The notes beneath the pieces are model-generated. The model saw nothing but the letters and a program-made list of their open reading frames with translations. It was not told the DNA's origin and did not search any database. A stretch of DNA of 30,366 nt from Chitinophagales bacterium. Lineage in GTDB: Bacteria; Bacteroidota; Bacteroidia; Chitinophagales; Saprospiraceae. The translations under genes were made by a program, and so were the position numbers. The stretch lies in the NCBI GenBank assembly GCA_038219375.1, contig JBBRJL010000001.1:1-30366 (forward strand). The letters are read 5' to 3'. Positions 14,609-19,074 of the stretch are shown one piece after another. The stretch's first letter is position 1. Each line of letters starts with the position of its first letter.

Positions 14609-15418
14609 ATGATCTATTACAAGACTGATGAGGAGATAGAATTAATGCGTGAGAGTAATTTGCTTGTAAGTAAAACTTTGGCGCATGTAGCAGGATTACT
14701 AAAAGTAGGAGTCTCAAGCAAAAGTGTTGATAAGGAAGCTGAACAATTTATAAGAGATCATGGTGGAATTCCTGGTTTTAAGGGTTATAGAGGTTTTCCT
14801 TCAACATTGTGTATGTCTGTAAATGATGCTGTTGTACATGGTATTCCAAGTGCTTTAGAATATAAAGATATAGATGTAGTTTCAATAGATTGTGGCGTTA
14901 TTCTTAATGGATTTTATGGTGATGCAGCTTTTACTTTTGCTTTTAAAAATGCAGGTGAGAAAGTTGAGCGTCTTCTTAGGGTTACTAGGGAATCATTAAG
15001 CAAGGGAATTTCTGTTGCTCTAGTTGGAAATAGGATTGGAGATATAAGTCATGCTATACAACATTTTTGTGAAAGGGTTAATGGGTTTGGAATAGTCCGT
15101 GAGTTGGTGGGTCATGGTGTAGGCAGAAATCTTCATGAGGATCCAGAAGTTCCTAATTTTGGCTTAAAGGGTAAAGGCCCTATGCTAAAAGATGGAATGG
15201 TTATTGCGATTGAGCCTATGGTTAATATGGGTCATCGTAGTGTCAAGCAGAAAAATGATGGGTGGACCATAGTAACGAGAGATGGAAAAGCTTCAGCACA
15301 CTTCGAACACAGCGTCGCTATCCGTAAAAATGGCCCTGATATCTTATCAAATCATACTTTTATAGACATTGCAGTTAAAAATAACTCGGAAATACTTGAT
15401 ATTTCAATAAATAGTTAG
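14609..15418 (+). CDS. map: Type I methionine aminopeptidase
   Basis: VHGIP, IDCG...GDAA, GHGVG..LHE.P, AIEPM, SAHFEH metal-ligand motifs. Confidence 0.98.
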   Translation: MIYYKTDEEIELMRESNLLVSKTLAHVAGLLKVGVSSKSVDKEAEQFIRDHGGIPGFKGYRGFPSTLCMSVNDAVVHGIPSALEYKDIDVVSIDCGVILNGFYGDAAFTFAFKNAGEKVERLLRVTRESLSKGISVALVGNRIGDISHAIQHFCERVNGFGIVRELVGHGVGRNLHEDPEVPNFGLKGKGPMLKDGMVIAIEPMVNMGHRSVKQKNDGWTIVTRDGKASAHFEHSVAIRKNGPDILSNHTFIDIAVKNNSEILDISINS

Positions 15419-15425
15419 ATATTTG
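15396..15425 (+). promoter_or_regulatory. Probable promoter for infA-rpmJ-alpha genes, overlapping the map 3' end
   Basis: TTG (15396-15398), a 19-nt spacer, then GATATTTG(CG) (15418-15425): a -7 box with one mismatch at canonical -33 spacing. Confidence 0.5.
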
Positions 15426-15441
15426 CGCTCCAAAATAGAAA

Positions 15442-17238: not shown

Positions 17239-17269
17239 GGCTATCCTTTGTGGATAGCCTATCCTTTTT
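17239..17269 (+). terminator. Terminator/attenuator-like hairpin between rpsD and rpoA
   Basis: GGCTATCC-TTTGT-GGATAGCC perfect 8-bp stem followed by TATCCTTTTT. Confidence 0.45.
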
Positions 17270-17294
17270 AATTAAAATTAGAAAAATTATCATA

Positions 17295-18293
17295 ATGAGT
17301 ATTCTAAATTTTCAAAAGCCGGAAAAAATACTTCTACATAAATCAGATGATTTTGATGGTACTTTTGAATTTAAGCCATTAGAACAGGGGTTCGGTCAGA
17401 CTATAGGAAATTCATTAAGGAGAGTTCTTTTATCTTCGTTGGAAGGTTATGCTATATCTGCAATAAGAATTGCTGGTGTAGATCATGAGTTTTCAACTAT
17501 TAAAGGTGTAGTTGAAGATGTGGTTGATATTATTCTTAATATCAAGCAAATTAGGCTGAAGCCAATGGTCATTATAGAAGGATCAGAAGAGGAAAAGTTA
17601 TACGTAACTATTTCAGGTAAAGAGCAGTTTGTAGCTGGTGATATTGAAGCAAGTACTAATACTTTCAAGATTATGAATCCTGACTTGTATATATGTACAT
17701 TGGAGCCAAATGTGACTTTAGAAATTGAATTTACAGTCACTAAGGGTAGGGGATATGTGCCAGCAGATGAAAATTTGCCAAAGGATGCTTCAATTGGTGT
17801 TATACCAGTTGATGCAATTTATACGCCTATCAAGAAGGTCGCTTATAAAGTAGAAAGTACTAGGGTTGGTCAACGAACTGATTACGAAAAGCTTACTATT
17901 GAGCTAAAGACAGATGGTACTATTCATCCTGAAGAGGCAATTAAAGAAGCATCTCGTATTATGATTCAGCATTTGATGTTGATTACTGATGAGAATATTA
18001 CATTCAATGACTCATCATCAAGAGAGGATAGTATTGTAGATGAACATATTCTCCACATGAGGAAGTTATTGAAAACTTCTTTGGAAGACCTCGATCTCTC
18101 CGTTAGAGCTTACAACTGTCTCAAAGCAGCGAAGATCAATAGCTTAGGAGAAATGGTTAGATTTGATATGCACGAATTGCTTAAATTTCGAAATTTTGGT
18201 AAAAAATCATTAGTTGAAATTGAAGAATTGTTGCAACAGAAGGGACTTACTTTTGGTATGGACCTTTCTAAATATAAACTTGACGAAGAGTAA
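17295..18293 (+). CDS. rpoA: RNA polymerase alpha subunit
   Basis: PLEQGFGQTIGNSLRRVLLSS...HEFSTIKGVVED...LSVRAYNCLK...RNFGKKSL. Start set at ATG 17295 (MSILNFQKP), not GTG 17250. Confidence 0.99.
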   Translation: MSILNFQKPEKILLHKSDDFDGTFEFKPLEQGFGQTIGNSLRRVLLSSLEGYAISAIRIAGVDHEFSTIKGVVEDVVDIILNIKQIRLKPMVIIEGSEEEKLYVTISGKEQFVAGDIEASTNTFKIMNPDLYICTLEPNVTLEIEFTVTKGRGYVPADENLPKDASIGVIPVDAIYTPIKKVAYKVESTRVGQRTDYEKLTIELKTDGTIHPEEAIKEASRIMIQHLMLITDENITFNDSSSREDSIVDEHILHMRKLLKTSLEDLDLSVRAYNCLKAAKINSLGEMVRFDMHELLKFRNFGKKSLVEIEELLQQKGLTFGMDLSKYKLDEE

Positions 18294-18296
18294 TCG

Positions 18297-18389
18297 CATC
18301 GACCCGGCTTAAAGCTGGATGAATATTTATTTAATAACGGTATAAAACGTTGCTTTCGTGTATCTAAGGTCGAATATAGATAAAAGCAA
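18297..18389 (+). ncRNA. Candidate structured cis-regulatory RNA (two bulged hairpins plus pseudoknot) upstream of rplQ
   Basis: Hairpin 1 at 18297-18321, hairpin 2 at 18350-18389; TCGACC (18299-18304) is complementary to loop GGTCGA (18368-18373). Predicted by eye. Confidence 0.45.
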
Positions 18390-18413
18390 TAGTGGTACAT
18401 AATTAAAAAGTTT

Positions 18414-18926
18414 ATGAGACACGGTAAGAAGTTTAATCATCTCGGAAGAAAAAAAGGACATAGAGATGCCTTGCTTTTGAATATGGCTAATTCGTTGATT
18501 CTACACAAGAGAATAAACACAACTCTAGCAAAAGCGAAAGCACTTAGAGTATTTGTGGAGCCTATTTTGACAAGATCAAAAGATAACACCACACATTCTA
18601 GAAGAATGGTATTTGCTGATCTTCAAAATAAGGCAGTTATCAATGAATTATTTGATAATGTAGCTCCTAAAATTGCAGATAGACCAGGTGGTTATTGTAG
18701 AATCATCAAAACAGGTTTCAGAAAGGGTGATGCTGCAGAGATTGCGATGATTGAATTGGTAGATTTCAATGATGTTTTAGTTGCCAAAACTAGTACTGCA
18801 AAAGCTGCTGTGACTAGAAGAAGTAGAAGAAAGTCAGGTGGAGATGCCACAGTGGGTGCGGTTGCAGCGGCAGCTGTTGTAGCTACAACGGTTGTTGATG
18901 AAGAAGCTGGTAACGAAGAAGAATAG
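18414..18926 (+). CDS. rplQ: 50S ribosomal protein L17 with C-terminal extension
   Basis: [12 protein letters not shown]...INTTLAKAK...[27 protein letters not shown]. Confidence 0.99.
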
Positions 18927-18947: not shown

Positions 18948-18985
18948 AAAAGGGGTGCTATCCATTGTGTTAGTGCCCCTTTTTT
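18948..18985 (+). terminator. Intrinsic terminator ending the ribosomal supercluster
   Basis: AAAAGGGGTGCTA-loop-TAGTGCCCCTTTTTT; GC stem with two G.U pairs and a U tract. Confidence 0.85.
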
Positions 18986-19074
18986 ATTTGTATAATTTTC
19001 GGCCTTATTTTAAATACAAAAGAAAATTTATTTTTTTTCTCTAGGCTTGTCCTTTTATATTTTAAGAACGCTTA

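Follow-up and report, generated by a model that had tools for sequence, protein, structure and literature searches.

A conserved pseudoknot-type RNA between rpoA and rplQ in the Saprospiraceae, a candidate ribosomal-protein leader

The alpha operon ends with rplQ, and how this gene is regulated apart from rpoA is a question even in Escherichia coli; the literature searched yielded no experimentally supported L17-binding leader. The analysis concerns a window, that is, the whole stretch of 30,366 nt analysed here, comprising the ribosomal-protein supercluster of a Saprospiraceae genome (Chitinophagales bacterium, GCA_038219375.1, contig JBBRJL010000001.1), in which rpoA and rplQ are separated by a spacer of 120 nt (18294-18413). 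An earlier note on this DNA had read the spacer as a candidate pseudoknotted ribosomal leader. The present analysis supports that reading insofar as the spacer encodes a conserved pseudoknot-type RNA that is apparently undescribed so far; the note had overlooked a core that is conserved family-wide, set its first hairpin (H1) off register and proposed a pairing with rplQ codons that is not conserved.

Gene context and architecture of the spacer

The identities of rpoA, rplQ and rpsD were confirmed by NCBIfam. An open reading frame scan starts rpoA at a GTG (17250), which falls inside a hairpin of the rpsD-rpoA spacer (17239-17270), whereas the first ATG agrees with the start in relatives (table 1). 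The hairpin itself (GGCTATCC/GGATAGCC), followed by repeated CTATCC and a T-run and kept in the genus (L104-L108), is terminator- or attenuator-like. Further upstream, positions 15390-15430 before infA are by eye a near match to the Bacteroidota -33/-7 promoter pattern, which suggests that the alpha operon could begin at infA. The rpmJ-rpsM spacer is short and AT-only, as previously observed.

Within the rpoA-rplQ spacer no terminator or sigma-70-type promoter was matched by a scan whose promoter models exclude the Bacteroidota type. Readthrough producing an rpoA-rplQ fusion was rejected because the spacer contains an in-frame stop and the spacer lengths of relatives are not multiples of three. 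Downstream of rplQ, a hairpin and U-run resemble an intrinsic terminator, one that a simple terminator scanner with a loop limit of 8 nt did not report. Relatives have equivalents by eye at this site and the next gene differs between genomes; rplQ is thus the sole gene that the spacer element could control in cis.

Table 1. Coordinates of the genes and RNA features discussed, numbered within the window
Feature	Position	Strand	Remarks
rpoA (RNA polymerase alpha)	17295..18293	+	first ATG 17295; TAA stop overlaps stem P1
5' domain	18293..18320	+	P1 (18293-95 with 18318-20) around G-N-N, pseudoknot strand and hairpin P2
5' strand of long-range (pseudoknot) helix	18299..18304	+	covariation
P2, variable hairpin within 5' domain	18305-09 with 18313-17	+	length varies freely
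AU-rich linker	18321..18339	+	sequence and length variable (alignment A1)
Core 5' strand	18340..18348	+	P3 GTAT (18340-43), A-rich bulge, AC (18347-48)
Arm	18350..18389	+	P4 (18350-56 with 18383-89), asymmetric bulge, P5, apical loop
3' strand of long-range helix	18368..18373	+	in apical loop of arm, 19 nt past core AC
Core 3' strand	18392..18398	+	GUG (18392-94) and P3 partner GTAC; stops 15 nt short of AUG
rplQ (bL17), last operon gene	18414..18926	+	TIGR00059 above cut-off
Intrinsic-terminator-like hairpin and U-run, 3' of rplQ	18948..18989	+	-19.4 kcal/mol fold

The element comprises a 5' domain and an arm-bearing core joined by a linker, and is 104-128 nt long across 38 genomes of the same genus. 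In most pseudoknot-type members the AC and GUG of the core are ∼42-46 nt apart. The pseudoknot strand begins 3-7 nt past the rpoA stop codon in 34 of 35 genus members; outside the genus this distance is 1-81 nt. A single-sequence fold of the element is no more stable than those of shuffles (z = +0.37), and the case for structure therefore rests on comparison.

Comparative evidence for the structure and its family-wide core

The helices and the 6-nt complementarity described in the earlier note are all present in the sequence at the coordinates it quoted, and we followed them through a MAFFT alignment of rpoA-rplQ spacers from the 38 genomes (A1), judging covariation by tree-step counts and swap tests. 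The six long-range pairs (18299-18304 with 18368-18373) are 98.2% paired (n = 38), the unpaired cells deriving mostly from one sequence (L197) that MAFFT shifted by one column. Three of the six pairs change on both sides, none of 500 shuffles matches the observed values, slid controls are only 23-46% paired, and RNAalifold selects the helix unprompted. The central pair (GC in 20 genomes, AU in 17 and GU in one) swaps repeatedly between A-U and G-C on a tree of flanking coding DNA. Taken singly, its two sides need 7 and 8 steps, yet 8 joint steps suffice rather than the 15 expected if the sides were independent, counts that are rough given the short alignment (∼310 nt). Across other genera (49 spacers) the strands of this helix differ in sequence and remain complementary at a fixed offset: their mean duplex score of 17.3 falls to 14.7 ± 0.37 when the upstream regions are exchanged among genomes, and none of 10,000 permutations reaches the observed score. 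The commonest pseudoknot core is GGC/GCC (41 of 74). Together these results bear out the bulge-to-loop pairing, and with it the claim of a conserved pseudoknot-type RNA before rplQ, and we regard the structure as almost certainly real.

The 3' long-range strand mostly begins 16-22 nt past the core and is 83% unpaired in the predicted fold of the arm, a geometry from which we infer that helix and arm would form together. The hairpins of the earlier note required revision. The outer stem proposed for H1 (CAT/ATG) is fully paired in only 6 of 38 genomes, and a shifted register (ATC/GAT), corresponding to P1 with its NTC/GAN pairing and its overlap with the rpoA stop codon, is paired in 34 of 38. 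For the second hairpin (H2), the lower stem covaries in A1 and stands, whereas only 2 of 38 genomes have the CGTG bulge, so that its suggested pairing with rplQ codons 2-4 is rejected.

The most conserved part of the RNA is helix P3 (18340-43/18395-98) with its internal loop, in which AC lies opposite GUG. In order, P3 is followed by a 2-3 nt A/U bulge opposite G and by an A-U and a C-G pair. Of 136 Saprospiraceae spacers, ∼114 match a descriptor of this core, a count in which about six picks are misregistered and several misses are visible variants. Twelve of the 136 spacers (L040, L041, L043, L046, L047, L051, L053, L057, L058, L088, L207 and L224) are only 9-42 nt long and do not contain the element, making these genomes natural comparisons for rplQ control in its absence. 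In some genera (L048, L114, L162, L211 and L241), terminator-like hairpins with T-runs are seen by eye between the rpoA stop and the core. The GTG is invariant in A1 and in two further alignments (A2 and A3) that were themselves chosen on GTG. Among 30 members with short arms, P3 covaries strongly (last pair A-U in 14, G-C in 11, U-A in four and U-G in one) and is followed by a GAWG tail; many family members have no 5' domain, and the smallest are hairpins of ∼35 nt lacking the pseudoknot. Since a model built from pseudoknot-type arms alone also picks up many of the short-arm forms, and does so at the same location, both forms belong to one family. The pseudoknot is therefore an accessory module that many members do without.

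Throughout the family the bases of the internal loop are conserved while the stems covary. This bears on two readings that involve no bound ligand. In the first, cleavage in the AU-rich linker parts rpoA from rplQ and the arm shields the new 5' end, making the element an mRNA processing or stability signal. The products of rpoA and rplQ are required in different amounts, and the linker is conserved as an AU-rich stretch between two folded domains; however, this reading leaves the conserved internal-loop bases, the GAWG tail, the fixed arm length and the 15-nt spacing to the AUG unexplained, and we think it rather unlikely. In the second, the RNA acts in translation independently of protein, either as a standby or docking structure for the 30S subunit or as a switch coupled to rpoA termination, as might be expected from the overlap of P1 with the rpoA stop, the position of the pseudoknot strand just past it in the genus and the fixed AUG spacing. 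Its appeal is reduced by the variable stop distance outside the genus and by the many members missing the 5' domain, and we consider it similarly unlikely. Processing and coupling account for the linker and the stop-codon overlap, but not for the conserved loop bases.

Distribution and candidate functions

A DNA search, a scan with the descriptor and the covariance model each find the element only once in its own genome, and a repeat or mobile element was therefore rejected. A model of the short-arm form yielded three new Saprospiraceae matches, all directly before rplQ, as well as a fourth, weaker match in the family and matches outside it that are not before rplQ. None of 42 loci of other families of the order showed the core, although one (L023, Chitinophagales) bears a loose resemblance. 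A strict pattern applied to 301 genomes of the order matched at about control level, and none of the 30 matches inspected is before rplQ, most being in reading frames; a class-wide model search of 150 genomes gave only one weak AT-rich match, also not before rplQ. Among the genomes searched, the element is restricted to the rpoA-rplQ spacer of the Saprospiraceae. Many Flavobacteriales have rpoA-rplQ spacers of only 6-9 nt. Two Crocinitomicaceae metagenome-assembled genomes (L127 and L160), from an order in which most of these spacers are 6-9 nt, have an unrelated conserved long hairpin stopping ∼11 nt before the rplQ ATG.

Searches of Rfam returned no relevant match for the window, the spacer or 20 family loci even at E values up to 10, consistent with an undescribed RNA, and no published description of the element was found in literature searched largely without subscription papers. 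No known small self-cleaving ribozyme or riboswitch consensus was matched in Rfam. A ribozyme or small-molecule riboswitch might nonetheless be envisaged for a pseudoknot of such rigid geometry, and with two domains joined bulge to loop its topology is reminiscent of the ZTP riboswitch. We find this highly improbable given also that the element is reduced to a ∼35-nt hairpin in some genera and is seen only before a ribosomal-protein gene.

The consistent position of the element directly upstream of a ribosomal-protein gene (rplQ, in family spacers and model matches) and its covarying structure are the two features by which ribosomal-protein leaders are recognised comparatively, and conserved internal-loop bases amid covarying stems are the pattern of a putative protein site. 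We therefore consider it probable, on sequence comparison, that a ribosomal protein binds this RNA as a regulatory leader, with the family-wide core the likely binding site. Eckert and Weinberg assign leader ligands by an "Only" criterion (PMC7247131); with rplQ as the only downstream gene, this rule indicates L17. Our preferred reading, to which we give about an even chance, is that the RNA is a cis-acting leader of rplQ with surplus bL17 as its most likely ligand. In the ribosome bL17 contacts H57 (PMC11354259), which pairs loop-to-loop with H96 (PMC2275092), by eye perhaps a loose topological analogue of the long-range pairing.

From the end of the core to the ATG there are 13-18 nt in the genus (mode 15), and this spacing is constant in pseudoknot-type members. 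Initiation independent of Shine-Dalgarno (SD) pairing in Bacteroidota needs low structure from -20 to +20 and an A at -12/-13 (PMC6847099). We predict that free L17 would bind the conserved internal loop and stabilise the helix that stops ∼15 nt before the start codon. Because the edge of this helix sits within the low-structure zone, binding would prevent initiation at rplQ or trap the 30S subunit. More speculatively, the pseudoknot would pack the 5' domain onto the arm and increase affinity and, in the genus, P1 would be opened by a ribosome reaching the end of rpoA, which would relax this packing. Among short-arm members the core lies 10-54 nt from the ATG, which suits simple occlusion poorly.

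Ribosomal-protein leaders often, though not necessarily, mimic the rRNA site of their ligand; here a two-strand profile scan of 16S and 23S rRNA, in which AC and GTG were forced invariant, reached at best 14.2 bits against a null of 15-16, and the covariance model had no match in rRNA. Mimicry of h18, H96 or H54 was not supported, with no site above the null in the profile scan and none found by model search. For 23S H101, an idea based on E. coli, the Saprospiraceae helix has no UAAC strand.

A different ligand would be uS4, repressing rplQ from a second direct site that reproduces the base of 16S helix 18 in compact form. By eye the family consensus (GCAN, UAAC ... UGC, GAAG) resembles the organism's own h18 base, in which nucleotides 508-512 contact S4 and A509/A510 are required for binding (PMC2665224), and the commonest pseudoknot core, GGC/GCC, is that of the 505-507/524-526 pseudoknot. 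In E. coli, rplQ is under repression by S4, and a second site has been proposed there but never demonstrated (PMC10931766). Set against this, neither the profile scan nor the covariance model singles out h18, the invariant U of GUG and the AAAAC of the window differ from it, and S4 binding requires h3, h4 and h16, none of which is present in the element. Lying downstream of rpsD, the site could moreover not serve S4 in controlling itself. We regard uS4 repression as the leading alternative to L17, but as unlikely.

A two-input switch, in which a ribosomal protein occupies the core and the pseudoknot is opened by a ribosome that terminates on rpoA, is a doubtful possibility; the protein in such a switch is possibly uS4, recognising 16S helix 18 in a minimised version that draws its pseudoknot strand from upstream. 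If true, it would provide a direct physical mechanism for the control of rplQ across rpoA, a question in E. coli since 1984. The family forms a natural deletion series, from a ∼35-nt hairpin to a 105-nt pseudoknotted form, of a compact and strongly covarying RNA in a phylum whose translation initiation does not use SD pairing. Ligand identity, pseudoknot function and repression independent of SD pairing can thus be tested directly.

Comparison with known leaders

The closest published counterpart of an L17-bound leader is the L17-Actino-Proteobacteria candidate, itself a prediction (PMC7247131). It likewise stands directly before rplQ, has the same presumed ligand and logic, and includes an optional 5' hairpin. 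In that candidate the core consists of a 10-nt loop that contains CCUGAUACG and is closed by a stem, in contrast to the internal loop, long arm and long-range pseudoknot of the Saprospiraceae RNA. The loop motif (CCUGAYACG) is absent from the window and occurs in one of 136 Saprospiraceae spacers (L075), where it is apparently stem-paired. The L17 downstream element (L17DE) is also associated with rplQ, but is downstream of the gene and confined to Firmicutes.

The E. coli alpha-operon S4 operator is similarly a pseudoknotted RNA near a start codon in this operon, and its entrapment mechanism is compatible with the one proposed above. Its nested pseudoknot surrounds the ribosome-binding site of rpsM, whereas the Saprospiraceae element precedes rplQ, does not extend to the start codon and matched nothing in Rfam. 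The S4-Bacteroidia and S4-Flavobacteria candidates (PMC7247131) share phylum and operon with the element, but are single hairpins before rpsD with an unrelated consensus; the rpsK-rpsD spacer of the window, at 23 nt, has no hairpin of either type. As judged from consensus sequence and structure, the element lies outside the published L17, S4-Bacteroidia, S4-Flavobacteria and alpha-operon families.

In a sister family of the same order (f25), five of six genomes (L298, L301, L302, L307 and L308) have a different conserved rpoA-rplQ hairpin with the loop CC(U)UGACACG. These hairpins have no Rfam match either, making Rfam an insensitive test of L17-leader membership. Their loop matches that of the L17-Actino-Proteobacteria candidate, a point in favour of L17 as the ligand at this position, and may extend that candidate to the Bacteroidota. 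Neighbouring families appear to fill this position with different structures, a pattern relevant to the evolutionary replacement of such regulators.
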